IMG/VR virus record: IMGVR_UViG_3300005937_000010
Location: 1 to 64,000 of that record
From: a virus
Taxonomy: Duplodnaviria > Caudoviricetes
Length of the DNA stretch: 64,000 bases
Reading direction: 5' to 3' (one strand)
Shown here: one piece after another, positions 5,663 to 52,795 of the stretch
How positions within the stretch are numbered: position 1 is the first letter of the stretch
How the letters are laid out: every line of letters begins with the position of its first letter
The notes under the pieces: generated by a model
What the model was told of the DNA's origin: nothing
Databases searched by the model: none
Seen by the model: the letters and a program-made list of their open reading frames with translations, nothing else
Program-made: the position numbers and the translations under genes

Positions 5663-8280
5663 TAGCTCACCCCTGTGATGTGAGGCTCATCGAGAGCAAA
5701 CTCCGGAACTGGTACCTCGCCGTTCGACGGCGAGACTGCCAAGATGTACGGAACGAACATGGTGACGCTAACAGATATGCCACCGTTCATGGGCGAGACG
5801 CTGAGCAGGATCGCCGGTTCTTGCCTGGTATCGACCAGCCCCGGCAGCGTGTAGCCCGCTCCGGCCGAGACGAGGACGAAGCCGCGTACCGTGGTCATCG
5901 TCGGTCGGAAGCCGATGGCAAGTCCAACGACACCGGGGGCAATCTGGACTCCGAAGACGACGGTGGAGGACTGCTTCTTGCCAAGTACGATGGGAGCGAT
6001 GCCCGACCCGAAGAACGAGACTCCACGCACCGTGGTCGCCGGAAGCCGTCTCCCGATGGGAACCTGAACCACTCCAGGAGCCACTGAGAGGCCGCGTACG
6101 GCCGTCGCAGCCGTTTTCCGACCAATGACCAGGGTGGCGGTGCCAGCGCCGCTTAGAACGGCTCCTCGCACCGTCGTGGCTGCCAGGCGCGTGCCGATGG
6201 CGAACTGCTGCGGCGCGATCAGCGTAAGCTGGATGCCACGGACGGTCGTGGCGGCAGACAGCTTGCCAAGCGAAATCGCAGACGGAATGATGGTGATGCC
6301 ACGAACCACCGTCGCGGAAGCTCTGCGCCCAATCGTAATCGGTGCCAAGCCAGGAAGGAGGGTGACACCGCGAATCACGGTTGCCGTCAGCTTCTTGCCA
6401 ACAGCAACCGTGACCGCTCCGGCCGCGACGAGCGTAGCTCCACGCACGGTGGTGGCATTGGTCTTCTTGCCAAGAATGACAGGGGCGGCTCCCGTCGGGA
6501 CGAGGGTGACGCCACGGGGGGTAGTGACGTTACTCGACTTCCCAATCGGGATGTTCACTCCTGACGGTGCAAGTACCAAGCCGCGTACGGTCGTCGCGGC
6601 GGTCTTCTTCCCGATGGTGAGGGTGACTGTGCCGACCCCTGTCAGCGTCGTCCCACGTACCACCGTGGCAGCAATGCGTCCTAGAACAATCGGTGCTGCG
6701 CCAACCGAGTAGACCTGAGCGCCGTAGACAGTCGTCGCAGCCGCGCGCTTGCCAATCGCCAGCGTCAGCGTACCCGCGCCTGCGAGCGTAGCTCCGCGCA
6801 CCGTCGTGGCATTGGTCTTCTTGCCGATGACAAGGGTGGCAGTTCCGGCTCCGGTGAGCGTGGCACCCCTGACGGTCGTCGCCGTAGTCTTGGCACCGAT
6901 GGCGAGTGTGACCGTCCCGGTACCCGTGACCGTTGCACCGCGCACTGTCGTGGCGTTGAGCTTCTTTCCGATGACAAGATTGGTTGTGCCCGCCCCGGTG
7001 AGCGTGGCCCCACGCACCGTGGTCGCGTTGAGCTTCTTTCCGATGGGCAGGCTTACAACGCCAGGGGCAAGCGTTGCTCCCCGGACGGTCGTGACCGTCG
7101 TCTTACGCCCGATGGGAAGCTGAACGGTTCCTGTAGCCGCAGGGGTGACGCCACGCACCACCGTGACACTGGCCTTCGTGCCAAGCGTGATCCCGAAACC
7201 GGCAGAGAGAAGGACAACGCCGAAAGCGCCGGTTCCACCATACGGCTCCTCTCCGTAGCCGTTCGCACCGTACGAGCTATAGCTTGGTATGTAACCAATC
7301 GTCAGTACCGCCGGAGGCGGCACGATCTGGACGCCGTACACCGTCGTGGCGACTGTCCTCTTGCCAAGCTGAACAGGAGCCGCGCCTGCGGGAACGACAG
7401 TCGCTCCGCGCACGGTAGTGGCAGCCGCGCGCCGTCCGATGGCGACAGGCACGTCGCCTGCGCCGGTCAGTGTCATGCCACGGACGACGGTGACGGACGC
7501 TACCCGGCCGATGAACGGCTTGATGTCGGTCGGGAGCGTAGCTCCTCGCACGACGGTAACTGACAAGACATCGCCAATCGCAACCGGCACAGTCCCGGAT
7601 GCAGAGACGGTGACGCCACGCACAACCGTCGTAGAGAGAACATCGCCAACCGGCACATTAGAAGGAAGAACAAGATCAGGAGTGACAAGGCGCGATCCGG
7701 CAGGGCCGGTCGAGCCGGTGCGAATCTGAACGTCCGCCGAGTTGCTGCCACCCGCAGTCGTGATTTCCCATGCCAAGACGAAGAACAGATACTCGTTGGC
7801 CAAGTTGATCGTCGCGCCAGGATTCCAGGTAACAGCGCTTGTCACATCGGCCGACGTAGAGAGCGTGCCTGACGTGCCACCAACCACCGTCGCGCCGGTC
7901 AGTTCGGTCGCGCCAGAGCCGTCCGCGTTCGCGCTCTTGAACACCCGCATTCGCATCCGGCCCGACTGTGCCGATACCAAGGTTGCGCGCACAGCGAAAG
8001 TAAACGTCCAAGACGTGTTGGCGAACGTGCCTGACAAGGGAGCAGGAGTCTTGAAGGCATTGGCCGTCGCGCCGGTCAGGAAGCTCGCAGGCTTGGCAGC
8101 GGTCGTGAACGCGCCTGACGCCTGCTTCGTACCAGCATCGAACTCTGCCATGTTCGTGGAAGCGATCTTGGCAACTGTCCAGCCGTCAGCCCTGGTTGCC
8201 GCCGTCTGCGCCGCGCCGTCCACGAGCGCGCCGAAGTTACCGTCTGCGCCCGATGCGACGTAGTATGTCTTGGTAGCCAC
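5662..8280 (-). CDS. Large virion fibre-like protein with about 24 tandem 22-24 aa repeats (IGKKxxATTVRGATLxxxG)
   Basis: 872 aa, Thr/Val/Gly/Ala-rich; the repeats are directly visible in the translation. Confidence 0.7.
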   Translation of the reverse strand: MATKTYYVASGADGNFGALVDGAAQTAATRADGWTVAKIASTNMAEFDAGTKQASGAFTTAAKPASFLTGATANAFKTPAPLSGTFANTSWTFTFAVRATLVSAQSGRMRMRVFKSANADGSGATELTGATVVGGTSGTLSTSADVTSAVTWNPGATINLANEYLFFVLAWEITTAGGSNSADVQIRTGSTGPAGSRLVTPDLVLPSNVPVGDVLSTTVVRGVTVSASGTVPVAIGDVLSVTVVRGATLPTDIKPFIGRVASVTVVRGMTLTGAGDVPVAIGRRAAATTVRGATVVPAGAAPVQLGKRTVATTVYGVQIVPPPAVLTIGYIPSYSSYGANGYGEEPYGGTGAFGVVLLSAGFGITLGTKASVTVVRGVTPAATGTVQLPIGRKTTVTTVRGATLAPGVVSLPIGKKLNATTVRGATLTGAGTTNLVIGKKLNATTVRGATVTGTGTVTLAIGAKTTATTVRGATLTGAGTATLVIGKKTNATTVRGATLAGAGTLTLAIGKRAAATTVYGAQVYSVGAAPIVLGRIAATVVRGTTLTGVGTVTLTIGKKTAATTVRGLVLAPSGVNIPIGKSSNVTTPRGVTLVPTGAAPVILGKKTNATTVRGATLVAAGAVTVAVGKKLTATVIRGVTLLPGLAPITIGRRASATVVRGITIIPSAISLGKLSAATTVRGIQLTLIAPQQFAIGTRLAATTVRGAVLSGAGTATLVIGRKTAATAVRGLSVAPGVVQVPIGRRLPATTVRGVSFFGSGIAPIVLGKKQSSTVVFGVQIAPGVVGLAIGFRPTMTTVRGFVLVSAGAGYTLPGLVDTRQEPAILLSVSPMNGGISVSVTMFVPYILAVSPSNGEVPVPEFALDEPHITGVS

Positions 8281-8823: not shown

Positions 8824-9134
8824 TTCACTTCCTCGTATAGCCGCTCGTACTCCGTGGGTGCCAAGCCGAACTGCACATCGCCGGTATCGACGTAGTAGTA
8901 GCCAGGAGCGATGATCGCGCCGTTGTCGAGTGTGAGGTAGTCCTCGGTGGCGTTCTGGAACAACTCGAAAACCGGGGCTTCATTGTTGGCCATGAACTCG
9001 TCGTGGTCGGCCTTGACCTTGGCAATGTACGCCTCGTGATCGGCCTGCATCTGTGCCTTGATCTTCTCCTGCTGCTTGGCAGTCTCCTTGTGCCGGATCT
9101 TCCCCTTCGGCATTCTCGGTGTCGGTGGCATCAC
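8820..9134 (-). CDS. Hypothetical protein (possible fibre chaperone)
   Basis: 104 aa, ATGA coupling, follows the collar-domain genes. Confidence 0.6.
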   Translation of the reverse strand: MMPPTPRMPKGKIRHKETAKQQEKIKAQMQADHEAYIAKVKADHDEFMANNEAPVFELFQNATEDYLTLDNGAIIAPGYYYVDTGDVQFGLAPTEYERLYEEVK

Positions 9135-9931
9135 AAAGCCCTCACTATCTTGTTGACGATGATCGTGGGTTGCGTGTTCAGGTGAGCACCGCCACCGCCC
9201 ACGGCATCGATGGCATGAGCATGCCCATTGCTCGACCCGCCCGTTGTCAGGTAGTGCGAGTGGTCGTAGTTCTCGCCTCCCAAGCTCGCGTAGCTGTACT
9301 CCGTACGAAACTTATTGCCGTAGAAGCCAAAGGGCGCTCCACCGCCGCAGTTGAAGGCCCAGTCGCCATCGCCAAGAATCCCGTCGCCAAAGTTGATGCC
9401 ATTCACGGCAATGTGGTTGTGGCCGTAGTCGCCGTGAACGTGCGCGGCACTGCGTCCACCTGAGTTGCCACCATGCGCATGATCGGACGAGATGGTGCCC
9501 GTTGCCCCGCCGTGCGAGTGCGATGGTATCTGTGCGGTTGCCAAGGTCACGCCTTCGCCTCCGACTGCCGCACCGAGAACCGTTCCGGCTGTCCCTGAGA
9601 TAGCAGCGGTGATTCTGTTCGCTGCGGTGCCTCCCATGTCATCCTTGCCTGCCGAGACGCGCCCGCGCTTGTCAGCGATGTTGAACGTCGTGGAGCCGTC
9701 GCCGGAGCCGTGCGGGTAGCTCGCTGCCGCCGCAAGTGCTGCCAAGGCGCTGTATGTCGTTCGGCTCACGGCCTGCCCGTACTGGAGCAACGCCCAGCTT
9801 GGCAGCAAGGTGGGACTGTAATCCCATTCCAACGATGCCCCGACCGGAACGACGGTCAGCGGCGCTGTATCGCCAGCGGCAACACGCCAGAGCGGGATCC
9901 AGTCGGTCGTGGACGGCGACGGCGTAGGCAC
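9131..9931 (-). CDS. Tail-collar-domain fibre protein, paralogue 3
   Basis: WALLQYGQAVSRTTYSALAA...GDGSTTFNIADKRGRV collar motif, six HxH motifs, C-terminal HLNTQPTIIVNKIVRAL. True start is GTG 9931 (TAGTG overlap). Confidence 0.8.
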   Translation of the reverse strand: MPTPSPSTTDWIPLWRVAAGDTAPLTVVPVGASLEWDYSPTLLPSWALLQYGQAVSRTTYSALAALAAAASYPHGSGDGSTTFNIADKRGRVSAGKDDMGGTAANRITAAISGTAGTVLGAAVGGEGVTLATAQIPSHSHGGATGTISSDHAHGGNSGGRSAAHVHGDYGHNHIAVNGINFGDGILGDGDWAFNCGGGAPFGFYGNKFRTEYSYASLGGENYDHSHYLTTGGSSNGHAHAIDAVGGGGAHLNTQPTIIVNKIVRAL

Positions 9932-10737
9932 TAGAGCGCCCTCACGATTCGGTTGACGATGATCGTCGGCTGCATGTTGAGATGCGCGCCACCACCGCCC
10001 TCTGCCGGGATCGAATGTGTGTGGTTGGCGCTCACACCACCAACACCTTGGTAGTGGTAGTGATCGACATTCTCGGTACCAGTCGTCACATAGCCGGTGT
10101 TGGTGTAGAAGCGGTTGCCTTGCGTACCGAAGGGAGACTCGCATCCACCGCCTGAAAAGTCTTGGTTGCCATCACCAAGCCGCCCGTTGTTCCAGGGGAT
10201 GTCCATGACGGCAGGATTGTGGTAGTGCCCACTGTCGCCGTGGCTGTGATCGCTACTCTCGGTGCCTGTCGTCCCACTGTGCGTGTGGTTGGCATTCTGC
10301 AACTGGGTAGCTCCGTTGTGCGAGTGAGACGGGATTGCAGCCGTTGCCAAGGTGACACCTTCGCTGCCAACCGCTGCACCGAGAACTGTGCCTGCCGTCC
10401 CGCAGATCGCGGCCGTAATCCGGCTGGCAGCCGTCCCACCCATGTCATCCTTCCCGGCTGCGATCCTGCCACGTTTGTCTGCCAAGTTGAACGTGGTGCT
10501 CCCATCACCCGATCCATGCGGGTAGCTCACGGCCGAAGCGAGCGCCGCGAGCGCGCTGTATGTCGTACGTGAGACTGCTTGGCCATATTGGAGCAGTGCC
10601 CAGCTTGGTATCTGCGCTGAGCCGTAGTCCCACTCGATGGACATGCCAACGGGGATCGACACCAACTGCGAAGCATCTTGGATGCCAAGACCGTAGAGCG
10701 GCACCCAGTCAGTCGTGGAGGGATTTGGGCTTGGCAT
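9931..10737 (-). CDS. Tail-collar-domain fibre protein, paralogue 2
   Basis: Same architecture as its neighbours; TGATG coupling. Confidence 0.8.
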   Translation of the reverse strand: MPSPNPSTTDWVPLYGLGIQDASQLVSIPVGMSIEWDYGSAQIPSWALLQYGQAVSRTTYSALAALASAVSYPHGSGDGSTTFNLADKRGRIAAGKDDMGGTAASRITAAICGTAGTVLGAAVGSEGVTLATAAIPSHSHNGATQLQNANHTHSGTTGTESSDHSHGDSGHYHNPAVMDIPWNNGRLGDGNQDFSGGGCESPFGTQGNRFYTNTGYVTTGTENVDHYHYQGVGGVSANHTHSIPAEGGGGAHLNMQPTIIVNRIVRAL

Positions 10738-11531
10738 CAGAGTGCCCTCACGACTTTGTTGACGATGATGGTGGGCTGCACATTCAGATGTGCGCCTCCT
10801 CCACCTTCGGCACCGATCCCGTGGTTGTGGTTGGCACTTATGCCAGGCAGGTTCACACCGTGAACATGCGCAGCGCTGCGTCCACCGGCATTCATGTAGC
10901 CCCAGTGCGTCCAGAACGAGTTTCCGTCCGTTCCGAAGTACGCACCGCCGCCTGCCGAGAGAGCAGTGTTGCCGTCACCAAGAGAGCCATCATCCCAGCC
11001 GACGCCCGTGACCGCTGGCCGGTGATAGTGGCCAGGATCGCCGTGAGTGTGATCGGCGCTACGGCCATTCCCTTGACCGGAATGCGTGTGATCGGCCGAC
11101 TCTCCACCCGTTGCACCGCCGTGAGAGTGAGACGGGATCTGTGAGGTTGCCAAGGTTACACCTTCGCTACCACACGCTGCACCAAGCACAGCGCCACTTG
11201 CTCCGGCAATCACAGCCGTGAGTCTGTTCGCATACGTGCCGCCCATGTTGTCTTTCCCTACAGAGACACGACCTCGCTTGTCTGCCAAGTTGAAAGTCGT
11301 TGAGCCGTCACCCGCTCCGTGTGGATACCCTGATCCGGCTGCCAAGATGTGAAGGCGAGAGTACGTCGTCCGCGACACTGCCTGGCCGTACTGCAAGAGC
11401 GCCCAACTTGGTAGTTGCGCCGAACCGTAGTCCCACTCCATCGACGCACCGATGGGGATTACCTGCGGTGGCGTGTCACTGAGATTCCAGATCGGAACCC
11501 AGTCAGTAGTTGCAGGGCTAGGACTTGGCAC
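10737..11531 (-). CDS. Tail-collar-domain fibre protein, paralogue 1
   Basis: Same architecture as its neighbours; GTG start abuts the upstream TGA. Confidence 0.8.
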   Translation of the reverse strand: MPSPSPATTDWVPIWNLSDTPPQVIPIGASMEWDYGSAQLPSWALLQYGQAVSRTTYSRLHILAAGSGYPHGAGDGSTTFNLADKRGRVSVGKDNMGGTYANRLTAVIAGASGAVLGAACGSEGVTLATSQIPSHSHGGATGGESADHTHSGQGNGRSADHTHGDPGHYHRPAVTGVGWDDGSLGDGNTALSAGGGAYFGTDGNSFWTHWGYMNAGGRSAAHVHGVNLPGISANHNHGIGAEGGGGAHLNVQPTIIVNKVVRAL

Positions 11532-25499: not shown

Positions 25500-26385
25500 G
25501 GCGCGATTCTAAGCGCTTCCGAGCCGTCGGGCGCAACTTCCCTGCATCTGAGGCCAGGTGGCCCAAAAGAGAGCACAGAAGGGCATAGGAGAGCCTCAGT
25601 GCCGCTTTGGGCTACCAAGCTGCTGATTTCCCTGCAAATCACCATTTTCAGGCAGCTTGGTACCCCTGAACCGCTTTTCTACCCAAAAACTTGTCACTTT
25701 GAGGCGTTTCCGGGTGGCCAATCCGCCCCCGCGGCCTCCCCCCTTCGGCGTCGTCAAACTTGGCACTTTCCGATAACGGAGGCTAATGCGCTGCCTGCCA
25801 AGCTGCTTATAGGTTGCGCGCGCAAGTATCGTCTTGGCAGGCAACGTCCGAGGCTGGCTGCCCTGCCGTCCTGCCAAGCCGCTCCGGCTGCCCTGCCTGC
25901 CTGCCACACGAGGCCGCTGCGCCCGGTGCGGTGGAGGCAGGACGGCAGGACGGAGGCTGCGCACACGGCTGCGGTGGCACCGTCCTCGTGGTGTCCTGGA
26001 GGCCACCCGTGCGGAGCGGCACTGGCTGCCTCCGTACGCTCCGGCTCGTGCCACGGATGCCACCGCTCCGGAGCGGATGCGGCGTGGCGTCCTGGAGGCA
26101 GCCGCTATCTCCAGGCAGTGCCTCCGTGGTGGAGCCTGCCAGTGCCAAGCGGAGGCCATGGACGGAGCCGCTCCGTGCCTGGCGCTCCACCGTGTGCGGA
26201 TGCCAAGCCGGAGGCCGTCCGCTCGCGCGTACGCGGAGGACGCTGCCTGCCAAGACACGAAAAGTCCGCAAATAGCGGCTTTTTTCTAAGCTCGCGGAGT
26301 GCCTGCCAAGCCGCATCCTGCCTGGAGCCGTCTACTCTGTCCGTGCGGCCACGAGGCCGCACCACCCGAACCGATTGGAGACACC
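25500..26385. promoter_or_regulatory. Divergent intergenic region (candidate control region / genome end)
   Basis: Strand switch point; AT-richer patch at 25620-25790; short direct repeats (GGCTGCCCTGCC x2); hairpin at 26343-26362; many TGCCAAG copies. Confidence 0.5.
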
Positions 26386-29300
26386 ATGTCGCACGAGCCT
26401 TACACCACCACCACGAGCCAGCGCGTCTACGCCAGCATGACGGAGCGCCGCGAGCGGTACGCCAGCCTGGAGCGGCTGCCGTCCACGCCGGACACCACGT
26501 GGAACGTGGCGCGCTGCCAGGACACGCACTGCCACGTCCTCTACGTGTGGCCTCGCGGCCTCGCCAGCCTGGAGGACGGAGCCACGCTCCGGTGCGTCCG
26601 CTGCGGCGCTCCGCTGGCGCGGACTACCCGCGAGGCACGCGGAGCCTGGAGCCTCTACCCGCTGGAGGACTTGGCAGCCGCGTACGGCCGTGCCCTGGAG
26701 CGCCAGGACGCCGCTGCGGCCTCGGACGCGGAGTACCTCGCGGCGCTGGAGGCCAGCGGCACCACGAGCGCGGACGGACTGGCGTACGCCAGGCAACTGC
26801 GGACGGAGACTCGCGCCACGATGCGCAAGCCGCTGGAGGCCAAGCTCCGCAAGCTCCGCAAGGCAATGGCTGCGGAGGCTGCCAAGCTCGCGGAGGCCGC
26901 TGCCGTCCGCGAGGCCGTGGACGCGGAGACGGACGCGGAGTACGTGGCCATGGCCTCCACGATGCGGCTGCCGCAGCCGGAGGCCACGGAGCCGGAGCAC
27001 CACACGGACGCGGAGCCTGCCACGCCAGCGCAAGCCGTTCTACTGGCTGCCCTGGAGGCTGGCACTGCCAAGCTCGTGCCGTCCACGGAGGCCGTGGAGG
27101 CTGCGAAGGCTGCCGCTGCGGAGACGGCTGCCAAGCTCCGCGCGGAGCACGAGGCCGCGAGGACGGAGCGCGTCCACGCCTCGGATGCCTACCGCGCGTC
27201 CAGGACGCCGGAGGACGATGCCAAGACACTGGAGCGCGTCCAGGCTGCGGACTACGCGCTGCGGCAGACACGCGCTGCCCTGGAGGCCGCTGGCGTCCTG
27301 CCGCAGCCGCGCGTCCACACGTACGCCAGCACGTCCGAGGCGTACAACCGCAGCCAGTGCGACGATGCCGTACAGGACGGAGACGTGCTCCGCGTGCCGT
27401 CCGAGGACGCTGCGGCCGTCATGGTGTCCGCGTGGCCAACCGCTGCCACGGAGGCCACCGCTGGCGAGGCTTTCCACGTGCTCGCGGATGGCGAGGACTG
27501 GAGCGCGCTGCCTGCCGTCCTGGACGGAGGCCGCACGGACTACGCGGAGTCCGCTGCCGTCATGGCTGCGGAGCTTGCGGAGGACGCCACGCTGCGGACG
27601 CTGGCTGCGGACTTGGCAGCCAAGCCGCTGGAGGCCAGCGCGCTCGTGGCTCCGGAGGACGTGCCTACGCTGGCTGCCAAGCTCGTGCCTGGCGTGCTCG
27701 TGGAGCACGTGGAGTCCGGAGCGCGTGGCACGGTGGCAGGCACGCCAGCGCCGCAGCGGAGCGCTGGCAATGCGCTCTATGTCCGCGTCCGCTGGCAGCA
27801 CGAGTATGCGCGCGAGGCTGGCGCGCTCGTGGCCATCCGGAGGCTCCGCATCGTGGAGGACGGCTCCAGCACTGCCAAGCTCGTGGAGCCGCAGCCGGAG
27901 GCTCCGCAGCCGGAGGCCGTAGAGTCCGTCCGCGTCTACGCGGAGGCTGCGGAGCGCCGCGAGGCACGCGCGGCCGTCTACGGCACGGAGGCCACGGAGG
28001 ACGTGCTGCCGCTCGCGCATGCCATGGCTGCGGCGTGGAGCCATGCTGGAGGCCAGCCGGAGGACATGCCATCGGACGCCGGAGCCGTGCTCCGCGCGCT
28101 GGACGCGCGCATGCTGGAGACGGCTGGACGGCTGCGGTACGCGCGCATGGCCACCGCTCGCGGAAACTTGGCAGCGTCCATGGACGCGCTGGAGGCCGCT
28201 CTAGCCTCCGCTCGCGCGTCCGAGGCTGGCAGCCTGGACGAGTCCTCGGAGGCCGTCACGGAGCCGCACACGGCCTCGGAGGCCATGCCAGCGCCAGGCT
28301 TGTCCGGACTTGGCTGGACGGAGCTTGCGGACGGAGACGAGGACGCGGAGCGCTGCCGTGGCTGCGGCTGCCGCGCGGACTGGCACGATGCCATGGACGG
28401 AGCGTGTCCGGAGGACACGGAGGCTCCGCATCCGTACAGCATGGCAGCGGATGCCCTGGAGGACGAGGACACGCCGGAGGCCGTGGAGACTGCCAAGCTC
28501 CACGCGCTGGCAGCCGCAGCCGTGGAGGCCACGGACTGGAGCATGTCCGCGCTGGAGGACGTGTCCGCGCTCGTGCTGGACTACCGCGAGGCCACCGCTG
28601 CCGCGTACGGAGCGGATGCGCGCGAGGCTGCCAAGCGGACGCGCGAGGCCATCCGGCACGCGCTGGCAGACATGGACGGAGCCACGTACGCGCTCGTGCC
28701 GGACGCCACGCTGCGGCTGGCTGGCATGCCCTACGTGGAGCGCCAGTGCTCCGGCACGGAGGACGGCTGGCTGTACTACGTGCTCCAGGACGCGGAGCGC
28801 GTGGAGGACGCCGGAGGCTGGACGGACGCGGAGCCTGCCTGGCTGGAGGCTGCGGACTTGGCACGGCTGGCCATGCTGGACGATGCGGAGCGCCACGCGG
28901 TGGACGCGCTGCGCAGTGCCATGCAAGGCAGCGCGGAGGACGCATACGGCCTCGCCATCCTCGTGCTGGAGCCGTCCGGCTGGCACGTCCTGGAGTACCG
29001 CGAGGCCACGGCCTCGGACGGCTGGACGCCGGAGCGGATGCGCACGAGCGCACTCGTGGAATACGCGGAGCACGCTGCCAAGCTCGTGGACGTGGACGGC
29101 CTCGTGTGGACGCTGGCAGGCTCCGAGGACGTGCCAGCGCGCTCCGCTGCCCTGGCCACCGTGGACGCGCTGGAGGCCACCGCTGCCAAGCTCGCGGACT
29201 GCGAGGCCGTGTGCCAGCGGCTCCGCGTGGAGCTTGCGGACATGGCCAGCCGGACGCTGCCGGACTTCCGGAGCGCGGACGGCTCCGCGCTCGTGTGCCT

Positions 29301-29532
29301 GCCTGGCGCAGTGCTGCCGGACGGCCGTGGCTCCGTGGTGGTGGCTGCCAGCGCGTCCAGCGCGCACGTATGGCACGTCCTGGCCATGCGTCCAGGCTGG
29401 CACGCTGCGGACACGTACTACGTGGCCACGTACGCGCGGCCGTCCTCGTGTGACACGCCGCAGCGCACGGCTTGGCATGACACGCTCGCGGCTGCGCTGG
29501 CAGACTACGCCAGCCGGACGGAGGCCGTCTAA
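26386..29532 (+). CDS. Large Ala/Glu-rich multidomain early protein (1048 aa)
   Basis: CCCGAACC...GGAG leader before ATG 26386; consistent codon usage; TAATG coupling to the next gene. Contains Cys clusters and an STSEAYNRSQCDDAVQDGDVLRV...AWPTA...FH domain. Confidence 0.75.
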   Translation: MSHEPYTTTTSQRVYASMTERRERYASLERLPSTPDTTWNVARCQDTHCHVLYVWPRGLASLEDGATLRCVRCGAPLARTTREARGAWSLYPLEDLAAAYGRALERQDAAAASDAEYLAALEASGTTSADGLAYARQLRTETRATMRKPLEAKLRKLRKAMAAEAAKLAEAAAVREAVDAETDAEYVAMASTMRLPQPEATEPEHHTDAEPATPAQAVLLAALEAGTAKLVPSTEAVEAAKAAAAETAAKLRAEHEAARTERVHASDAYRASRTPEDDAKTLERVQAADYALRQTRAALEAAGVLPQPRVHTYASTSEAYNRSQCDDAVQDGDVLRVPSEDAAAVMVSAWPTAATEATAGEAFHVLADGEDWSALPAVLDGGRTDYAESAAVMAAELAEDATLRTLAADLAAKPLEASALVAPEDVPTLAAKLVPGVLVEHVESGARGTVAGTPAPQRSAGNALYVRVRWQHEYAREAGALVAIRRLRIVEDGSSTAKLVEPQPEAPQPEAVESVRVYAEAAERREARAAVYGTEATEDVLPLAHAMAAAWSHAGGQPEDMPSDAGAVLRALDARMLETAGRLRYARMATARGNLAASMDALEAALASARASEAGSLDESSEAVTEPHTASEAMPAPGLSGLGWTELADGDEDAERCRGCGCRADWHDAMDGACPEDTEAPHPYSMAADALEDEDTPEAVETAKLHALAAAAVEATDWSMSALEDVSALVLDYREATAAAYGADAREAAKRTREAIRHALADMDGATYALVPDATLRLAGMPYVERQCSGTEDGWLYYVLQDAERVEDAGGWTDAEPAWLEAADLARLAMLDDAERHAVDALRSAMQGSAEDAYGLAILVLEPSGWHVLEYREATASDGWTPERMRTSALVEYAEHAAKLVDVDGLVWTLAGSEDVPARSAALATVDALEATAAKLADCEAVCQRLRVELADMASRTLPDFRSADGSALVCLPGAVLPDGRGSVVVAASASSAHVWHVLAMRPGWHAADTYYVATYARPSSCDTPQRTAWHDTLAAALADYASRTEAV

Positions 29533-29684
29533 TGGCTGCCCTGGCTTGCGGCTTCGCTGCCGCTGCCATGGCCATGGCGTGCCTGGCCGCGAGCATGGAC
29601 GCCACGAGCCAGCTAGTGGCGCTCGTGCTGGCCATGCTCTACCTGGCGTGCTCCGTGCTCGCAGCCTGGAGCACGCGGCACTAG
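29532..29684 (+). CDS. 50-aa hydrophobic membrane peptide
   Basis: MAALACGFAAAAMAMACLAASMDATSQLVALVLAMLYLACSVLAAWSTRH; TAATG coupling. Confidence 0.5.
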   Translation: MAALACGFAAAAMAMACLAASMDATSQLVALVLAMLYLACSVLAAWSTRH

Positions 29685-30098
29685 CTGCCAAGCTCCGCGC
29701 GCAAGCTCGCGCGCTCCACGCTCTACCTGGACGGCCTCCACGCGGAGGCCGTCCGTGCGTCCGAGGCCGTGTGCGGCCTCGTGTGCCGCTGCCAAGCTCT
29801 AGGCAAGGCAAGCGGCCAGGCTCGTGCTGGCGTGGCCGCACGGAGCCAGCCACGGCCTCGCAGCGGCATGCCAGCCGGACGGCCTCCACCGTGCTGCGGC
29901 CTCCGGCGTCCAGGACGGCCGCAAGCTCGCGGACGCCGGACGCGCTGTAAGGCTCCAGGACGGCCGCTCGCGCGAGGCCATGCCAGGGCATGCCTGGCAG
30001 CCTCGGAGGCCGCGAGACGGCCGCACACGGCCTCGCAGCGGCGTGCTCGTGCCCTGGACGCTGGCACGTCCTGGCACGCGGCCTCGTGTCAAATAGAT

Positions 30099-30122
30099 GG
30101 ACGGCCGCTCGCGCGGCCGTCC
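30099..30122. terminator. Hairpin at the convergence of plus- and minus-strand genes
   Basis: GGACGGCCGC-TCGC-GCGGCCGTCC, a 10-bp stem with a GNRA loop on the minus strand. Confidence 0.55.
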
Positions 30123-30150
30123 AGGTAGTGCGTCTATGTCCGGCTGCGGA

Positions 30151-31104
30151 CTACAGCCGGAGGCCGTACGGCCGCAGTACCTCGCGGATGGCCTCCGCGA
30201 GCTTGTCTGCCTCCAGGTACGTGCCGTCCGTGTCCTGGCTGCGGAGCATGGTGCGGATGGCTCCGATGGCCTCCGCGTATCCGTAGCCACGGACGGCCTC
30301 GCACCACGAGGCCAGCGCGTCAAGCTCGCGGCGTGCTGCCTGGCGCTCCGCGAGCGGTAGCCTGGAGCGCGCTGCCGGATAGCCAGGCTTGGCATTGTTT
30401 CGGATGCGCTCCGGCACGTCCAGCGCGCGGCGCTCCAGCCGTGCGCTCCAGGCTGCGGATTCGGACACGTAGCCAGTGCTGGCCAGCGCGTACAGCGTGG
30501 AGTCCTGGCCACCATGCCAAGCCGCTGCGGAGGCCATAGCGTCCGCTGGCGTATAGACGTGGCTGGAGCACACTACCTCGCCTCCGTCCAGGCATAGCCA
30601 GCCGTCCGCGTAGACGGCAGCGCCGCACACGTCGCACGAGCTTGGCATGCCGTCCTCCGGCTCCGATACAAGCTCCGTCCAGTGCGCTCCGCTGCCATCC
30701 GTGCCGGACTTGCGGCCGTAGCCTCCGTCCATGTCCACGAGGTAAACGTCTACGCGCTGGCGCTCGTGCTCGCGGACTGCCTGGAATGCGTCCACGAGCC
30801 TGGAGTCTAGTGCCAAGCTCCAGTGCTCGCACCATGTCTCCAGCACGTCCGGAGCGCCACCGTGGAGCTTGCCTCCGTCCGCACGAGTGAATAGGACGGA
30901 CGCCACATGCTCGCGCAGCGCGTCCTCCACGTACTGGAGGCCGTCCGTAGTCAAGTCCTCATCTAGCAGGACGCCACATTCGTCGCAGTGTGATGGCGAG
31001 TCCGTCTCGCCTCCGATGGTAGGACTGGCGTCCTCCGGAGCGCAGTCCTCGCACCATAGGCAGGCAGCCTCCGGAGCGTAGTACGGAGTCCGTGCGTCCA
31101 TCAC
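30151..31104 (-). CDS. Early hypothetical multidomain protein
   Basis: CxxC...ETDSPSHCDECG...LTTDGLQYV module plus an AAAWHGGQDSTLYALASTG module; GGAGG RBS. Confidence 0.7.
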   Translation of the reverse strand: MMDARTPYYAPEAACLWCEDCAPEDASPTIGGETDSPSHCDECGVLLDEDLTTDGLQYVEDALREHVASVLFTRADGGKLHGGAPDVLETWCEHWSLALDSRLVDAFQAVREHERQRVDVYLVDMDGGYGRKSGTDGSGAHWTELVSEPEDGMPSSCDVCGAAVYADGWLCLDGGEVVCSSHVYTPADAMASAAAWHGGQDSTLYALASTGYVSESAAWSARLERRALDVPERIRNNAKPGYPAARSRLPLAERQAARRELDALASWCEAVRGYGYAEAIGAIRTMLRSQDTDGTYLEADKLAEAIREVLRPYGLRL

Positions 31105-32048
31105 GCTACCTCCGTCCGCACGAGCTTGGCACGAGCGGCCACGGCCTCGGACACTGCCTCGGACACGAGTCCGTAGTCTGACACGATGGCGTCTAGCTGG
31201 CGCTCCACGGACTCCGCACGGCTGGACGTGTCAAGCTCGCAGCCTCCGATAGAGGACGTGCCAAGCTCCACGCCAGCCGCGTACGCGGTGGCCACCACGT
31301 AGACGGCCTCGCGGCCGTGGATGGCAGTCCGCAAGTCCGCAGCCACGTACTGCCGCGCGAGGCAGTCTGCCTCGTGCCTGGCGTAGCCAAGCTTGCGGAG
31401 GCCAGCCACGTGCTCGCGGTACGGCATGTCCGGCACAAAGTAGGCATACGTGCCACGCTCGCGCGGCTCCGGCAGTGCCACCGCATCCGGCGTCCAGCCG
31501 TTTTGAAACTTGCCACGAGTCCAGTAGTCCGGATCGTAGTCCGCACGAGCCACCACGGAGACGGAGTAGCCACGCTCCACGAGCTTGGCAGTCCAGCCGT
31601 AGCCGTCCTCCGTCCAGTCCAGTGCCGGAGCCGGAGCCTGGCTGGCGTAGTGCCAAGCCGTGGACGCCGGATACCGCTCGTGCTCCGTGCGAAGCTTGCG
31701 GTACCGCTCGCGGCGTGCCTCGTGCTCCGCAGCCTTGCGCTCCAACCGCAGCCGCTTGCGCTCCGCGCGCTGCCAAGCCTGGACTTGTGCCAGCGTCCAC
31801 GCGGACGGCTCCAGCACGAGGCTGCCAGAATCGTCCAGCCGGACGCTGCCGATTGCCTCGCCACCGTAGCCAGCACTGCCGCGCGTGGCCACGAGCCGGA
31901 CGGCATCGCTGCCGTCCGCGTCCACGTGTGCCGTGGCCTCCGTGCCTACGTGCCAGCCACGGACGTGGCAGGTTACTCCGCTCCAGGCAGTACCGCAGCG
32001 CGTGGCCTCGCCACGGCTGCCCTGGAGACTGCCGTAAAAGTGTGACAT
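31101..32048 (-). CDS. Early hypothetical protein
   Basis: N-terminal SHFYGSLQGSRGEATRCGT...RGWHVG module resembles small phage early proteins; GGAGG RBS. Confidence 0.7.
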   Translation of the reverse strand: MSHFYGSLQGSRGEATRCGTAWSGVTCHVRGWHVGTEATAHVDADGSDAVRLVATRGSAGYGGEAIGSVRLDDSGSLVLEPSAWTLAQVQAWQRAERKRLRLERKAAEHEARRERYRKLRTEHERYPASTAWHYASQAPAPALDWTEDGYGWTAKLVERGYSVSVVARADYDPDYWTRGKFQNGWTPDAVALPEPRERGTYAYFVPDMPYREHVAGLRKLGYARHEADCLARQYVAADLRTAIHGREAVYVVATAYAAGVELGTSSIGGCELDTSSRAESVERQLDAIVSDYGLVSEAVSEAVAARAKLVRTEVA

Positions 32049-32228
32049 GTCCTCTACCTCCAGTCCTTTTCAAGTCTTGGCATGGAGCCAGCCGGACGCC
32101 GGATAGGCTCCGTGCTGGCGTCAAGCTCGCGGCCGTGGCGTACGTGGAGCGCCACGCTCGTGCGTGCTGGCTTGGCAGCCAGCGCCGCGCGTAGTGCGTC
32201 CTCGCGCGTGGCGTAGACGGCAGCCACG

Positions 32229-32432
32229 CTAGACACGGACGGACTCCGGCAGCACGATGGCTCGTGCTGCCTCCGCTGCCGCGTAGAGCTTGGCAGCCAT
32301 CGGACTCGTGGTGTCCTCGGACGCGCGCAGCGTGTCCTCCACGAGCCATACAGTGCGGAGCCGTCCAGTCCGGACGGACTCCACGCGCTGGCGCTCCGTG
32401 GCGCTGGCGCTGGACTTGCGATTACTTGGCAT
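32229..32432 (-). CDS. Small hypothetical protein (MPSNRKSSAS...)
   Basis: CCCGAACC-TACGGAGG leader before ATG 32432. Confidence 0.5.
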   Translation of the reverse strand: MPSNRKSSASATERQRVESVRTGRLRTVWLVEDTLRASEDTTSPMAAKLYAAAEAARAIVLPESVRV

Positions 32433-32891
32433 GTCTGCCTCCGTAGGTTCGGGTGGAGCCTCGCAAGCCGCGAGGCACTGCCAAGATAGCACACGGCTGC
32501 GGCTGTCTGCCAAGTCCTCGCGCGAGGCTGCCTGCCAAGCTCGTGCTACGCTCGCAGCCTTGCCAGCTAGACGGAGGTAGACATGCCAGGACGGTAGTCC
32601 GCTGGACATAGACGGAGCACGCCACACGAGCACGGCCGCGAGGCCGTGCGGCTTGGCATGCTCGCGGACTGCCTGGCGCGCTGGCGTGCCTGGCTGCCTC
32701 CGGCTGCCTCCAGGACGGCCGCTCCGGCGTGCCTCCAGGACGGAGGACGGACGGCCGCTCCGAGGACGTGGAGCGGCCGTCCAGCGCCGCGCGCTCCGAG
32801 GACGTGGAGCGCCGCAGCGGCGTGCTCGCGGCTGCCATGCCACGAGCCGCGAGCGGTAGCCAGCCTACCAAGTTAGTGGCCACTAACATGT

Positions 32892-32917
32892 GACAAGCCG
32901 CCCGAAGGCGGCTTGTC
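32892..32917 (-). terminator. Hairpin with C(UUCG)G tetraloop
   Basis: GACAAGCCGCC-TTCG-GGCGGCTTGTC, 11-bp stem, downstream of 32952-33197. Confidence 0.65.
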
Positions 32918-32951
32918 CTGGCACGGCGACATCGGTCAAACTTGCCTGGCA

Positions 32952-33197
32952 TCACACGGCTGCCAAGCTTGGCTCGTACGCGGCATCGAACATGTTTGGC
33001 ACGTCCAGGACGGCGAACGGATGCCGGAAGCATTCCAGCGCTCCGGCGCGCGTCGTGGCGTAGAGCGTGTGGATGAGGACTCCGTGCCAGTCCAGGACGT
33101 GGACTTCGTAGCCATCGTCCACGCCACCCATGTAGAGCACCACGCTGCCGCCGTTGCCAGGGATCGTCCTCGCGTCTACCTCGATTCTCTGTGTCAT
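32952..33197 (-). CDS. Early hypothetical protein
   Basis: A-rich leader, CCCGAACCGAACC and GGAGG RBS; ends with FRHPFA. Confidence 0.7.
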   Translation of the reverse strand: MTQRIEVDARTIPGNGGSVVLYMGGVDDGYEVHVLDWHGVLIHTLYATTRAGALECFRHPFAVLDVPNMFDAAYEPSLAAV

Positions 33198-35320: not shown

Positions 35321-35534
35321 TACCGTTACGGTGCTGGCTGGCGTTCCGCGTGGCCGCGTACGGCCACTCGTCCATGGAGCGCACTGTCACGTCCACGGAG
35401 TCGTGGCCATCGGGTGGCATGAAACCGATCCGGCGCAGTCCGGCGCGGAGCCAGAGAATGAATCCGAGAAACTCCACGGCAATCCATGCCAAGATGGCGA
35501 AGAATGCGAAGCTGCCGAAGATGGCCTCACGCAT
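35295..35534 (-). CDS. Small membrane protein
   Basis: N-terminal TM segment (IFGSFAFFAILAWIAVEFLGFILWL). Confidence 0.55.
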   Translation of the reverse strand: MREAIFGSFAFFAILAWIAVEFLGFILWLRAGLRRIGFMPPDGHDSVDVTVRSMDEWPYAATRNASQHRNGNGGKHGKG

Positions 35535-35787
35535 TCTCGTACTCCGCGTAGCGCCAGCGTGGAGCCTCCACGACGATGCACATGAAACAGTAGTCTCCGG
35601 CCTCCGGATGCCTGGCGGCTGGCGTGCCACGGCGCATCTTGCCACAGCCGTCGCACTGCCAAGCCACAGACGAATGACGGCCACGATGTCCGGCGTCCAT
35701 GTTGCACGCCTCACCGCAGCGCATCGGTTCGCCACAGACGCCAGAGGGCGCGGCCGGAGCCGCGCCCTCGTGCTGGCCTGGAGCCAT
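35527..35787 (-). CDS. Cys-rich hypothetical protein
   Basis: The ATG directly follows the upstream TAG; three Cys pairs. Confidence 0.5.
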   Translation of the reverse strand: MAPGQHEGAAPAAPSGVCGEPMRCGEACNMDAGHRGRHSSVAWQCDGCGKMRRGTPAARHPEAGDYCFMCIVVEAPRWRYAEYENA

Positions 35788-35789
35788 CT

Positions 35790-36731
35790 CTAGCGCCGTG
35801 CCTTGGCAGCGGCCTTGCCCTTACCCTTGACCGCTGTCGCCCGCGTCCGCGTGGCCGGAGCCTTGCGCGAGGCCGCAGGCTTGCCCTTCGGAGCCGCTGT
35901 GCGGGCCTGTGCGGGCTTGCGAGTCGCAGGGGCAGCCTTGCCCCTGGCCGGAGCGGGCTTGGCCGCAGCGGGCTTCACAGCGCGCCGCGTACGCGTCGTC
36001 TTCGGCCGGACGGCCGCGCGAGCCTCGCGCCTGCGGATGTCGTTCGGCTTGGTGCTCGTGCCGTACGCTGCCCGCTCGCCCGACTCGTGCTGGCCGGTGG
36101 CCTTCACGAAGTCCAGGGCCACGCGCCCGATGAGCCAGATGACCATGCGGTCGGCCGCGTGCTTGTCCTTGTCCGGGTACCAGCGCGTGGCGTGCCGCTT
36201 GACCTCCGCGAAGACCTTGGCCTTGTCACCCCGGTGCTTGCGCAGGCTGTCCATGACGATTCCGCGCTTGCTCGCGGAGCCGCCTTTCCAGTCCGCCGTC
36301 CAGTCGATGGCGCTGTTGTCGATGCGCACCGCGTAGCCTTCCGCCGCCTGGCCGCGCGTGCTCGTGCGCTTGGCAGCCGGAGCCGCCTTCGGAGCCGCCT
36401 TGCGCGCGACCGGCTTCGTCGTGGTGGCCTTGCCCTTGCCCTTCGCGGGCGCGACCGTGCGCGTGGTGGGCTTGGCAGCGGGCTTCGCCGGAACGGCCTT
36501 GCCCTTCGCCGGAGCGGCGGGCTTGCCCTTGACGACGGTCGTGGCTGCCGCCTTGCCCTTCGCTCCGTTGCGCCCGTTGGCGCTCGTGGCAGTCTTGCCC
36601 TTCGCGGGCTTGCTCGTGCGCGTCTGTGCCTGCTCCACGAGCTTGCGCAGCGTGGCGGGCGGGATCTTGCGGTAGTCCTCGATTCCCGCCTGCTTGGCCT
36701 TGGCCCACAGCGTAATCATGTCCTTGTCCAT
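35790..36731 (-). CDS. Linker-histone-like DNA-binding protein (HeH/Rho-N-like head, K/A/P-rich linker, globular core, K/R/A/P-rich tail)
   Basis: Composition and repeats (PAKGK, PAAKP) are visible directly; AGGAGG RBS; has its own promoter. Confidence 0.7.
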   Translation of the reverse strand: MDKDMITLWAKAKQAGIEDYRKIPPATLRKLVEQAQTRTSKPAKGKTATSANGRNGAKGKAAATTVVKGKPAAPAKGKAVPAKPAAKPTTRTVAPAKGKGKATTTKPVARKAAPKAAPAAKRTSTRGQAAEGYAVRIDNSAIDWTADWKGGSASKRGIVMDSLRKHRGDKAKVFAEVKRHATRWYPDKDKHAADRMVIWLIGRVALDFVKATGQHESGERAAYGTSTKPNDIRRREARAAVRPKTTRTRRAVKPAAAKPAPARGKAAPATRKPAQARTAAPKGKPAASRKAPATRTRATAVKGKGKAAAKARR

Positions 36732-36768
36732 GCCTACCTCCTATGTCGTGTTTCGGGTATCGGCAACC

Positions 36769-36798
36769 AAGGTAGCAAGGCTTGGCAAGGCTTGTCAA
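36769..36798 (-). promoter_or_regulatory. Sigma70/SigA-type promoter overlapped by clustered CTTGNCAAG sites
   Basis: TTGACA-N18-TACCTT. The -35 lies inside CTTGACAAG, the spacer contains CTTGCCAAG, and further sites lie at 36802-36808 and 36819-36827. Confidence 0.75.
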
Positions 36799-36805
36799 GG
36801 TCTTG

Positions 36806-37204
36806 TCACGAGGACTTGCTTGGCAAGTCCCGGAACGTCACCACGAGCGTGCCTTGATTGTGCGGGTGCTGGCCTGCCGGATCAAGGTACACGAGCTTCG
36901 CGGAGACGACGGCCAACACTCCGGCGTCCAGCTTCGGCGCGAGGACTTCCGCGACCTCGCGCGGCAGGTAGCCAAGCTGCTTGCCCTCGTACAGACGGCT
37001 TGGCAGGTAGACGGCCACGGCGTTCTCATCGTACGCATTCTCCGGCTCGCGCTCCAGGCGGATCCCGGAGATGCCCTTCGCGGCAGCCGCCGCGAGGATG
37101 GCGCGATTCTCCTTCGTCCACCGGAAGCGCAAACCGATCACAGTCAGTTCGTGCTCCCACGTCTTCGGCTTGGACAGCTTGGCACTTTGGGTCTTTCCTG
37201 GCAT
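36806..37204 (-). CDS. HIRAN domain protein
   Basis: LTVIGLRFR...LEREPENAYDENAVAVY...QLGYLPR. Confidence 0.85.
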   Translation of the reverse strand: MPGKTQSAKLSKPKTWEHELTVIGLRFRWTKENRAILAAAAAKGISGIRLEREPENAYDENAVAVYLPSRLYEGKQLGYLPREVAEVLAPKLDAGVLAVVSAKLVYLDPAGQHPHNQGTLVVTFRDLPSKSS

Positions 37205-52310: not shown

Positions 52311-52715
52311 TCAGGCTGCGGCCTTTCGCTTGGCCCTCGGCTTACCCGCCAACTGCTCGTGAAGCTCCTGCCCGACGTTGGTGCGCAGGCTCGGGAACTT
52401 GGCACTGAGCGACGGCGACTTCTTGATCTTGACCATGAACTTGTCAGGCTCATCGGCCCGGAGCGTCTTGGGTGGCTCATCGGGCTTGAAGGGGTTGCGG
52501 ATCTGCGTACCCTTCTTCCGTCCCGCCTTGACCACCGGCTCAAAGGAACACAGGCCGGTGAGATTGACCTTGTACCCCTGGATGATGCAGTCCGTCACTT
52601 CGTCCTTCAACGCCGTGAGGAACTTTCTGATCTGCGACTCTGGCGTGCCAGGGAGCCGCAAACCAATCTCGTGGATCAGATCCCCTTCGTTCAGTGAGAT
52701 TGGCCCCTTAGCCAT
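52311..52715 (-). CDS. HU/IHF-family DNA-binding protein
   Basis: GYKVNLTGLCSFEPVVKAGRKKGTQIRNPF; start ATG 52715. Confidence 0.85.
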   Translation of the reverse strand: MAKGPISLNEGDLIHEIGLRLPGTPESQIRKFLTALKDEVTDCIIQGYKVNLTGLCSFEPVVKAGRKKGTQIRNPFKPDEPPKTLRADEPDKFMVKIKKSPSLSAKFPSLRTNVGQELHEQLAGKPRAKRKAAA

Positions 52716-52795
52716 CTTGTCACTCTCGCTTCGTTTCGGGATGATTCCGGGGCGGTAACGAGCGCCAACTCCCACCGCCCCGGAACTTGTCAGTC

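Follow-up and report, generated by a model that had tools for sequence, protein, structure and literature searches.

The genome of this uncultured phage (72 kb; genomes of its clade measure ~60-72 kb) is pervaded by a single asymmetric heptamer, TG[C/A]CAAG, and copies of this word are stacked over the promoter of a gene for a basic protein of 313 aa. The question raised by this locus is whether that protein is the factor which reads the word. In the following, "the window" denotes the whole stretch of 64,000 nt that was analysed. The protein belongs to a previously undescribed family, its promoter holds the genome's sole tightly stacked run of the word, and we regard it as a good candidate for the reader.

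The genome-wide word

The heptamer is ~40x enriched. TGCCAAG alone occurs 303 times in the window against ~8 copies expected, with a strand split of 154/149, and TGACAAG contributes 105 copies; 87% of all GCCAAG carry a T directly 5'. In sense orientation the word falls in the frame NNT-GCC-AAG, in antisense orientation in two frames, i.e., its placement is independent of the reading frame, and ~4-5% of the genome, rare codons included, goes to this one heptamer. The sites are evenly spaced, with one word per ~150 bp and a gap CV of 0.64. They also repel each other, as only 11 gaps of <30 bp are observed where 80 are expected.

The preliminary description of this DNA had recognised an enriched genome-wide motif and taken CTTGCCAAG as its unit. 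The enrichment stands, but the basic unit is the 7-mer, of which CTTGCCAAG is merely a subset; the palindrome-like 9-mer form is a minor fraction (21 + 8 copies). We likewise rejected the palindrome CTTG-N-CAAG as the basic unit, its CT extension being present on ~7% of TGCCAAG, close to what the flanking logo predicts. A Pfam/NCBIfam scan of ~60 proteins (~30 small ORFs left out) revealed neither a methyltransferase nor any other DNA-modifying enzyme, which speaks for a binding protein rather than a target of modification. A literature search for the word matched only primers.

Promoter, leader and site array

The gene has a promoter of its own at 36769-36798 on the minus strand, composed of a -35 TTGACA (36793-36798), an 18-nt spacer and a -10 TACCTT (36769-36774), as had been proposed beforehand. 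The -10 is weak, too weak for a scan with the strict E. coli-type consensus, which misses the promoter; we call it because TTGACA(A)-N16-18-TAnnnT is conserved ahead of the homologue in at least 13 related loci. The leader (36737-36757, minus strand) contains an CCCGAAAC element at 36750-36757 and the Shine-Dalgarno sequence AGGAGG at 36737-36742, and is matched by the leaders of the related loci L007, L094 and L148. A conserved promoter and a strong Shine-Dalgarno sequence, set within a co-directional operon-like gene array, are what one would expect of a gene expressed at a high level.

Four TG[A/C]CAAG sites in the orientation of the gene form a tandem array at 36781-36827 (minus strand), with spacings of 17, 11 and 10 bp. 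The outermost, CTTGCCAAG at 36819-36827, lies inside the HIRAN gene upstream, at its 3' end, and the TGA of the next, TGACAAG at 36802-36808, is the stop codon of that gene. The third, CTTGACAAG at 36791-36799, includes the -35 TTGACA, and the fourth, again CTTGCCAAG (36781-36789), is situated inside the 18-nt spacer. Together they overlay the -35, the spacer and the DNA upstream of the -35.

The claim that this is the densest cluster, four sites in 50 bp, is upheld. Its four-site span of 38 bp is the tightest in the genome (the runner-up measures 99 bp), with P=5e-5 when the order of the gaps is permuted, and of only five gaps of <=20 bp in the whole genome the array accounts for three. How significant the array is varies with the null: random uniform placement yields a 4-in-47-bp cluster in 73% of trials. 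That result suggested a cluster formed by chance, a reading we rejected because real sites repel each other and uniform placement is the wrong null for them; because the sites avoid each other genome-wide, the array is a real outlier. No second gene in the genome has a comparable array, and the other TTGACA promoters (35056, 44916 and 22862) are devoid of the AAG extension and of extra sites. An array of this kind indicates control of the gene by the reader of the word; it does not by itself identify the gene product as that reader.

Architecture and predicted fold of the protein

The coding sequence (35790-36731, minus strand; TAG stop codon at 35790-35792) has a GC3 of 0.89, and its product has an overall pI of 11.6. 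The open reading frame and the AF2 model bear out the layout given in the preliminary description, in which a head is followed by a K/A/P linker, a core and a basic tail, and the head peptide quoted there was located in the sequence. The head (residues 1-40; 36612-36731, minus strand) is Rho_N/HeH-like and consists of two helices, 3-14 and 25-37, at pLDDT 90-96. It is followed by a disordered K/A/P/T/G linker (residues 41-127; 36351-36611, minus strand; pLDDT <55) with 23 K+R and 0 D+E, by a conserved helical core (residues 128-222; 36066-36350, minus strand; pLDDT 88-98), and by the basic tail (residues 223-313; 35793-36065, minus strand) with 29 K+R and a single short helix at 229-241. Overall, pLDDT exceeds 90 in the head and over residues ~135-220, and stays <55 in linker and tail, whose composition is 88-90% K/R/A/P/T/G with a pI of 12. 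The core includes an IDW stretch, has helices at 155-165, 170-184 and 190-212 with TGQH after the third, and is modelled as a domain of ~85 aa that is all-helical, with zero strands. R156, W199, R203, D207, Q214 and H215 are invariant. Such a tripartite basic architecture supports a protein of the DNA-binding type.

Matches to PF07498 (Rho_N) were obtained for 9 of 44 family members (best E=8e-5), the 313-aa protein itself giving none at E<=1. Its head aligns with the Rho N-terminal domain 1a62 at a VIA Z of 4.5 over 42 residues, and the family profile meets Rho in the PDB at E=0.71. For the core, Pfam, PHROG, NCBIfam and PDB searches returned zero matches. Fold searches (Foldseek against the PDB, VIA, and the Atlas by shape) reached a best Z of 6.1 and, like the ESM-Atlas look-alikes, yielded helical bundles with weak scores and nothing else. 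As the rows for SANT/DMAP1/SLIDE, PqqD, winged-helix and NAB2 all had Z <=6.1 or TM <0.5, we assigned no fold to the core; at Z 4-5, the SANT, SLIDE and winged-helix rows do not rise above noise. The whole protein has zero PHROG matches, two unnamed PHROGs each being matched by one of the 44 members, and the Pfam search found no PF00216 (Bac_DNA_binding, HU/IHF) in it.

The protein had also been called H1-like. What holds of this is the presence of K/A/P-rich disordered basic arms; homology is not supported. Neither the 313-aa protein nor any of 44 family members matches Linker_histone (PF00538) at E<=0.01, the AF2 core consists of helices only, with no beta wing, and H1/H5 chains are absent among the top 50 VIA rows for the model, in which the winged-helix rows E2F-DP and RPA32 score Z 4.2-4.5. 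Three of the 44 members match HC2 (PF07382; best E=7e-7), a similarity confined to the repeat-like basic linker and due to composition only. We judge the protein not to be a linker-histone homologue. It shares with H1/H5 and with chlamydial Hc1/Hc2 a folded domain between K/A/P-rich disordered basic arms, but has, unlike H1, a Rho_N/HeH-like head in addition; what it has in common with them is an analogy of composition.

Neighbouring genes

The upstream neighbour (36806-37204, minus strand) is a stand-alone HIRAN-domain gene (PF08797, E=3.7e-13) encoding ~132 aa from an internal Met. In all loci read, the homologue is preceded by a HIRAN gene, which adjoins it directly in 5/6, so that synteny is conserved along with the promoter. 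Downstream, a Cys-rich ORF of 86 aa (35527-35787, minus strand) starts with an ATG 3 nt past the stop codon, in the same transcription unit; it has zero family matches, and small ORFs come after the homologue in all relatives. The separate HU gene reported earlier was confirmed at 52311-52775 (PF00216, E=5e-6). It is found, in highly divergent form (26-35% identity), in all three complete relatives, lies ~20 bp after the preceding gene and is devoid of a promoter or array of its own. The same phage encodes RecA.

Relatives and dialects

Judged by sequence comparison, the protein is a member of a new family with ~100 representatives. Searches of GenBank phages by tblastn and megablast gave nothing for the protein or the surrounding 20 kb, and all GenBank phage matches of the DnaE-like polymerase are <30% identical, from which we conclude that the phage has no cultured relative. 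A metagenome scan for further loci produced 10, mostly short. One of the relatives had been placed in a bin together with an Acidobacteria MAG.

The expected co-occurrence of homologue and enriched word was found at loci of usable size. Each of ~15 independent loci that carry a homologue and span >=4 kb has its own word, enriched 10-50x, compared with 0/45 control phage loci; the exception is L098, a distant member on a contig of 5.2 kb, in which a TGNNAA word is absent and the best word, (T)AGAACG, reaches only control level. There are six or more dialects of the word, among them TGCCAAG, TGACAAT, TGAAAA and TGAAAT. All TerL-defined clade records with a replication module contain the gene; TerL-anchored fragments that do not contain it are also without the whole replication module and are uninformative on the link between gene and word. 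Helicase-anchored loci, too distant at ~30% identity, have neither the gene nor any word.

The promoter regions of the homologues are likewise rich in the respective dialect. Between -100 and -10, 26 dialect hexamers were counted across 10 loci against 7.0 expected, and extra dialect sites average 1.75 at the homologue promoter and 0.56 at 27 other promoter-like sites. A ranking of tight triples with broad dialect sets was noisy, overlapping near-palindromic hexamers being counted twice, and is of qualitative use only. The upstream and spacer copies match the local dialect: TGCCAAA in L094, TGACAAT in L009, TGACATT in L092, TGAAAG in L003 and L096, and TGAAAA in L004. L006, L093 and L098 have few or zero extra promoter sites, those of L006 and L093 being essentially the -35 copy alone, and the L098 promoter holds zero copies of (T)AGAACG. 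The -35 TTGACAA itself is kept in nearly all relatives regardless of dialect, e.g., in L002, whose dialect is TGAAAA, and in L098, although TGACAA is not enriched there. As it persists where the dialect is not of the TGNCAA type, part of the "carpet" of sites is ordinary promoter sequence.

In helix 3 of the core, the residue after the invariant Trp varies with dialect: L accompanies TG[CA]CAA, M TGACAAT, H TGACAA/TGAAAA, and N TGAAAT/TTGAAA. This pattern, read from aligned sequences, may serve as a lead only. The most conserved core residues listed above are constant across dialects. The dialect tracks the helicase phylogeny, and other clade-wide genes, the HU-like one included, correlate with it equally well. 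Since dialect follows descent, both the association of gene and word and the helix-3 pattern are fully confounded, and any clade-specific gene would score equally.

Proposed role and alternative explanations

We propose the 313-aa protein as an autoregulated reader of the word, for which it is a plausible candidate, and hold this view tentatively. The gene would encode an abundant early DNA-binding protein of the new family, whose core would recognise the TGNCAA-type word of the clade, here TG[C/A]CAAG, while the basic arms would clamp the DNA flanking each word. Coating of the phage genome would nucleate at these words, regularly placed at one per ~150 bp, and would result in a kind of phage chromatin. 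Free protein would bind the array over its own -35 and spacer and shut off the promoter, so that synthesis would follow the count of unoccupied genomic sites during DNA replication, a feedback by titration. In weighing this model we counted in its favour the pI of 11.6, the folded head and core with disordered arms and the Rho_N matches (9/44); the sole tandem array (P=5e-5) in a genome where the sites elsewhere keep apart; and the extra dialect copies at the promoters of relatives, together with an enriched word at nearly every homologue-bearing locus. Counted against it were a core that matches no known DNA-reading fold and has invariants independent of dialect, the HU/IHF-family gene also present in three complete relatives, the descent of the dialect with phylogeny, the dialect-independent -35 TTGACAA, and the few or zero extra sites of L006, L093 and L098.

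The protein might instead be a sequence-nonspecific condensing or nucleoid-type protein, comparable to phi29 p6, Hc1/Hc2 or H1 tails, with another phage factor reading the word; this is possible, but we think it doubtful. The HU/IHF-family protein encoded at 52311-52775, or an unannotated one, would then bind the array and set the amount of the 313-aa protein, a version to which we give the same limited credence. A nonspecific condenser is consistent with the composition-only HC2 similarity in 3/44 members, with a core in which no sequence-reading fold is recognisable and with core invariants that are independent of dialect, and many clade-wide proteins without annotation could supply another reader. 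The retention of the HU-like gene in the complete relatives, at 26-35% identity, points the same way. However, that gene has neither promoter nor array of its own and follows its predecessor by ~20 bp, and it is rare for HU-family dimers to recognise an asymmetric 7-mer of ~12 bits. Another reader is also disfavoured by the lack of a comparable array at any other gene in the genome.

Most of the carpet could alternatively be promoter architecture, i.e., an extended -35 TTGACAAG, a -35-like duplicate further upstream and copies that arise by chance in a genome so rich in the word, with a protein unrelated to the word; its Rho_N-like nucleic-acid-binding head could, for example, be used in the takeover of the host nucleoid or transcription. 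We consider this improbable. The -35 TTGACAA occurs in nearly all relatives whatever their dialect, including L002 and L098, L006 and L093 have essentially the -35 copy alone, and the cluster is unremarkable under the uniform null. Yet the genome-wide repulsion of sites makes chance stacking very unlikely (P=5e-5), the spacer and upstream copies track the local dialect and not a fixed sequence, and the TTGACA promoters at 35056, 44916 and 22862 have neither the AAG extension nor extra sites.

Very improbable, finally, is a catalytic or repair-linked core, a DNA-tethered enzyme that writes or maintains the word by context-specific nicking or mismatch correction, as has been proposed for VSP repair or HIP1: the invariant polar residues D207, Q214, H215, R156 and R203 do resemble an active site more than variable base contacts, the rewriting of ~500 sites as dialects drift suggests molecular drive, and a HIRAN (DNA 3'-end binding) gene lies upstream in all loci read (adjoining in 5/6), but sequence and fold searches of the core found no similarity to nucleases, glycosylases or transferases, the domain is all-helical and has only ~85 aa, and the even, frame-independent placement is better explained by selection for binding sites.

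Comparison with known systems

The nearest functional precedent for an autoregulated reader is p6 of phi29, an early, abundant, small phage DNA-binding protein whose coat is coupled to promoter control. It covers the phage genome, represses early promoters and recognises DNA bendability instead of a discrete word. Repression of promoter C2 by histone-like p6 is reported in works cited by PMC3100819 (refs 53-55). The two proteins are unrelated in sequence and family, p6 having neither a Rho_N head nor long K/A/P arms, and the phi29 genome, unlike that of the present phage, does not carry a regularly spaced heptamer throughout. TF1 of SPO1 is a phage-encoded nucleoid-type protein that prefers its own DNA. 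The present phage also has an HU-family gene, but the 313-aa protein is without a Bac_DNA_binding domain.

The word itself resembles HIP1 of cyanobacteria and the DUS/USS dialects, short words over-represented 15-300x throughout coding DNA, quasi-periodic and with lineage-specific variants (PMC5861425, PMC4390886, PMC13756078). It is likewise enriched (~40x), present on both strands, frame-independent and evenly spaced (CV 0.64), with six or more dialects. HIP1, however, is a palindrome of cellular genomes with links to orphan methyltransferases, whereas the present word is asymmetric, belongs to a phage clade and is ~10x denser, and no methyltransferase was seen among the ~60 proteins scanned. 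Lambdoid phages without Rec modules are enriched in the Chi sequence of their host, a fixed host word (Zheng et al. 2025, PMC12315714). They share with the present phage a genome enriched in a short asymmetric word, Chi being read by a protein machine, but our phage encodes RecA, and its word varies between close relatives, is equally distributed over the strands and is far denser.

Implications

We know of no earlier case of a phage that targets a nucleoid-type coat to the phage DNA by a dedicated, rapidly co-evolving sequence code. Should the 313-aa protein prove to be the reader, this would be the first such case known, would explain why ~4-5% of the genome is given to one heptamer, and would bear on how phages tell their own DNA from that of the host and evade nucleases. 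The dialects would then be natural swaps of specificity and could yield a compact, reprogrammable DNA-recognition module. Even with a different reader, the promoter array is the best handle so far for finding it.

On a broader scale, the clade may build a sequence-addressed chromatin, in which the protein family reads an evenly spaced 6-7-bp word, present in every gene and at ~500 sites with co-evolving dialects, senses free sites by means of the array on its own promoter and marks the DNA as "self"; we regard this as a speculative and rather unlikely generalisation. If true, the "self" mark would serve to protect or compact the phage DNA or to tell it apart from that of the host.

The phage and its iterated word

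The source of the window is a tailed phage, represented by a contig of 72,088 bp (62.4% GC) whose initial 64 kb make up the window. A 123-bp terminal overlap of this contig indicates a circular assembly. Almost every gene is encoded on the minus strand. Genes were identified for a gpA-type large terminase, a capsid protein, baseplate J, an NlpC/P60 tail protein and an amidase, as well as for RecA, a DnaB-like helicase, a Toprim primase, a DnaE-like polymerase and an HU-family protein; no close relative was found among GenBank phages. Many overlapping long ORFs occupy 25800-33100 in several frames, among them an opposite-strand ORF of 1077 aa without a solid family match and two genes of ~315 aa. 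In the counterpart region of relatives gene sizes differ (600-690 aa plus 330-520 aa), with a weak RNA_pol_A_CTD match in some. Non-coding flanks at 25.7-26.3 kb and 32.1-32.9 kb are rich in the motif described next.

The window contains TGCCAAG 303 times (plus strand 154, minus strand 149), where ~8 copies would be expected; T precedes 87% of all GCCAAG, and a second form, TGACAAG, has 105 copies. The preliminary description was correct that a genome-wide motif exists, but its unit is this asymmetric heptamer (hereafter the word) and not the 9-mer quoted there. Within coding sequence, the word falls in the frames of least cost (sense NNT-GCC-AAG; antisense CTT-GGC-A and NNC-TTG-GCA). A scan of ~60 proteins revealed neither a methyltransferase nor any other DNA-modifying enzyme.

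Word sites are spaced far more evenly than by chance (gap CV 0.64 vs 0.99), with 11 gaps below 30 bp against 80 expected and a largest gap of 599 bp against ~1,040. When the whole genome was compared with L006, L007, L092, L003, L096, L002, L104, L105, L108 and L111 (related metagenomic loci), most relatives were likewise even (CV 0.63-0.75 vs ~0.98 for random placement), and gaps below 30 bp were depleted 3-10x in this phage and most relatives. Even spacing and the depletion of short gaps suggest that each site serves a domain of ~100-200 bp. Duplicated protein modules supply part of the site count, since the word recurs at the same internal position in three tandem paralogous genes at 9131-11531(-) (~265-337 aa, period ~805 bp) and also in a further repeat series (5900-7400) within the 872-aa ORF 5662-8280.

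A basic protein of a new family

ORF 35790-36731(-) encodes an extremely basic protein of 313 aa (pI 11.6; 70 Ala, 45 Lys, 33 Arg, 29 Thr, 23 Pro). An AlphaFold2 model built from a 44-sequence family alignment predicts with confidence a head of two helices (residues 1-40) and a core of ~85 residues (about 135-220; helices 155-165, 170-184 and 190-212), separated by a disordered linker (41-127) and followed by a disordered tail (223-313). The head is Rho_N/HeH-like at the family level: PF07498 matches it in 9 of 44 homologues, and it compares with the Rho N-terminal domain at a VIA Z of 4.5. The linker resembles chlamydial Hc2 in 3 of 44 members, in composition only. The core has no match by sequence in Pfam, PHROG, NCBIfam or PDB, and fold searches returned only noise-level helical-bundle rows (best Z 6.1), among which SANT/SLIDE-like and winged-helix rows recur at Z 4-5. 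As no linker-histone domain was detected and the model shows no beta wing, "H1-like", the term applied at first, holds for composition and layout but not for ancestry.

An exhaustive HMMER search yielded 101 family representatives (22 below 1e-30), all metagenomic and without names, of 260-370 aa and with the four-part layout throughout; R156, W199, R203, D207, Q214 and H215 are invariant. Gene order is constant in every locus read: an SF2 helicase and a few small genes come first, then a stand-alone HIRAN gene, the homologue and at least two small ORFs, followed in the closest relatives by DUF932. The HIRAN gene (36806-37204(-) in the window; ~115-130 aa across loci), possibly binding DNA 3' ends, lies upstream of the homologue in every locus read and adjoins it in 5 of 6. 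Downstream, a Cys-rich ORF of 86 aa (35527-35787(-); several CxxC-like pairs) starts 3 nt past the basic-protein stop and is probably co-transcribed; it has no family matches and may be a small DNA-binding protein that holds zinc.

Promoter and array

The basic-protein gene is preceded on the minus strand by a -35 TTGACA (36793-36798), a -10 TACCTT (36769-36774) after an 18-nt spacer, and a Shine-Dalgarno AGGAGG. A strict E. coli-type scan misses this promoter because the -10 fits only 3 of 6 positions; the reading of it as a promoter is nevertheless supported by TTGACA(A)-N16-18-TAnnnT at the same position in at least 13 loci. Between -10 and Shine-Dalgarno lies the leader element CCCGAAAC (36750-36757(-)), kept in L007, L094 and L148. 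In the leaders of L143 (160-240) and L144 the corresponding interval holds a perfect inverted pair, TTGGCAG-N9-CTGCCAA, an arrangement unlike the tandem one in the window.

Four word sites form an array at 36781-36827 (minus strand, in gene orientation; spacings 17, 11 and 10 bp), located at the end of the HIRAN gene, across its stop codon, over the -35 and in the spacer. Uniform random placement gave a similar cluster in 73% of trials, but we set this null aside because it disregards the mutual avoidance of word sites. With real gaps permuted, a four-site span of 38 bp arose in 5 of 100,000 trials, and the next best in the genome is 99 bp, so that the array is indeed the densest cluster, as first described. 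TTGACA-N17/18-TAnnnT promoters of the same phage at 35056, 44916 and 22862 lack such sites.

Dialects among relatives

In homologue-bearing loci of at least 4 kb a word is enriched 10-50x in all except L098; the refuting condition named in the preliminary description, homologues in phages free of an enriched motif, therefore does not overturn its proposal. The form of the word varies by lineage: TGCCAAG in the window genome, L006 and L007; TG[A/C]CAAG in L001, L140 and L141; TG[C/A]CAAT in L009, L094 and L143; TGACAAT or TGACATT in L092 and L093; TGACAA plus TGAAAA in L003 and L096; TGAAAA in L002; TGAAAT or TTGAAA in L004 and L148. In L098, whose 5.2-kb contig bears a distant family member, no TGNNAA word was found; (T)AGAACG, with 15 copies (6x; 7-mer 13.6x), might represent a highly divergent dialect or noise. 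No such word occurs in 45 phage loci that are linked through a distant helicase alone and lack the gene.

Thirty-four loci gathered independently via terminase carry the word in structural genes across the whole uncultured clade (TerL identity at least 39%; L001-L009, L092-L096, L103-L135, L140-L148) and add the dialects GAAATT and GTAATT; their outgroup has no word. Dialects shift step by step along the helicase tree. The near-complete relative L096 (CALMZP010000084.1, 70.8 kb) was binned in an "uncultured Acidobacteria bacterium" MAG, a weak and sole hint of a host.

At homologue promoters of relatives we counted 26 dialect hexamers between -100 and -10, where 7.0 were expected. Besides the -35, these promoters carry 1.75 extra sites, compared with 0.56 for a set of 27 other promoter-like sequences; the outcome is weak or negative for L006, L093 and L098. 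HIP1/DUS-type iterated words are the closest precedent for the genomic signal (PMC4390886; PMC5861425), whereas in Chi-enriched phages the word is a fixed one of the host (PMC12315714).

Which protein reads the word

The array shows that the reader of the word controls the basic-protein gene, which does not make the basic protein that reader. The residue after W199 in helix 3 is L, M, H or N by dialect, but because dialect tracks helicase phylogeny, this position and the link between gene and word are inseparable from common descent; fragments without the gene also lack the entire replication module. The basic protein might instead condense DNA nonspecifically under the control of a different reader, for which the HU-family gene, likewise found in the three complete relatives, and the many unannotated clade-wide proteins are candidates; we regard this as rather unlikely. 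Quite improbable is that the pattern reflects promoter architecture and the protein's function is unrelated to the word: TTGACAA is kept at the -35 under any dialect, so that each promoter owes one of its "sites" to ordinary promoter sequence, but the extra copies match the local dialect and the short array span hardly ever arose by gap permutation. It is very improbable that the core is catalytic or linked to repair and writes the word.

We therefore favour, tentatively, a new phage nucleoid-type protein, for which phi29 p6 is the closest functional precedent (reference list of PMC3100819). Its core would recognise the word, its basic arms would grip the flanking DNA, and its synthesis may be autoregulated by titration through the promoter array.
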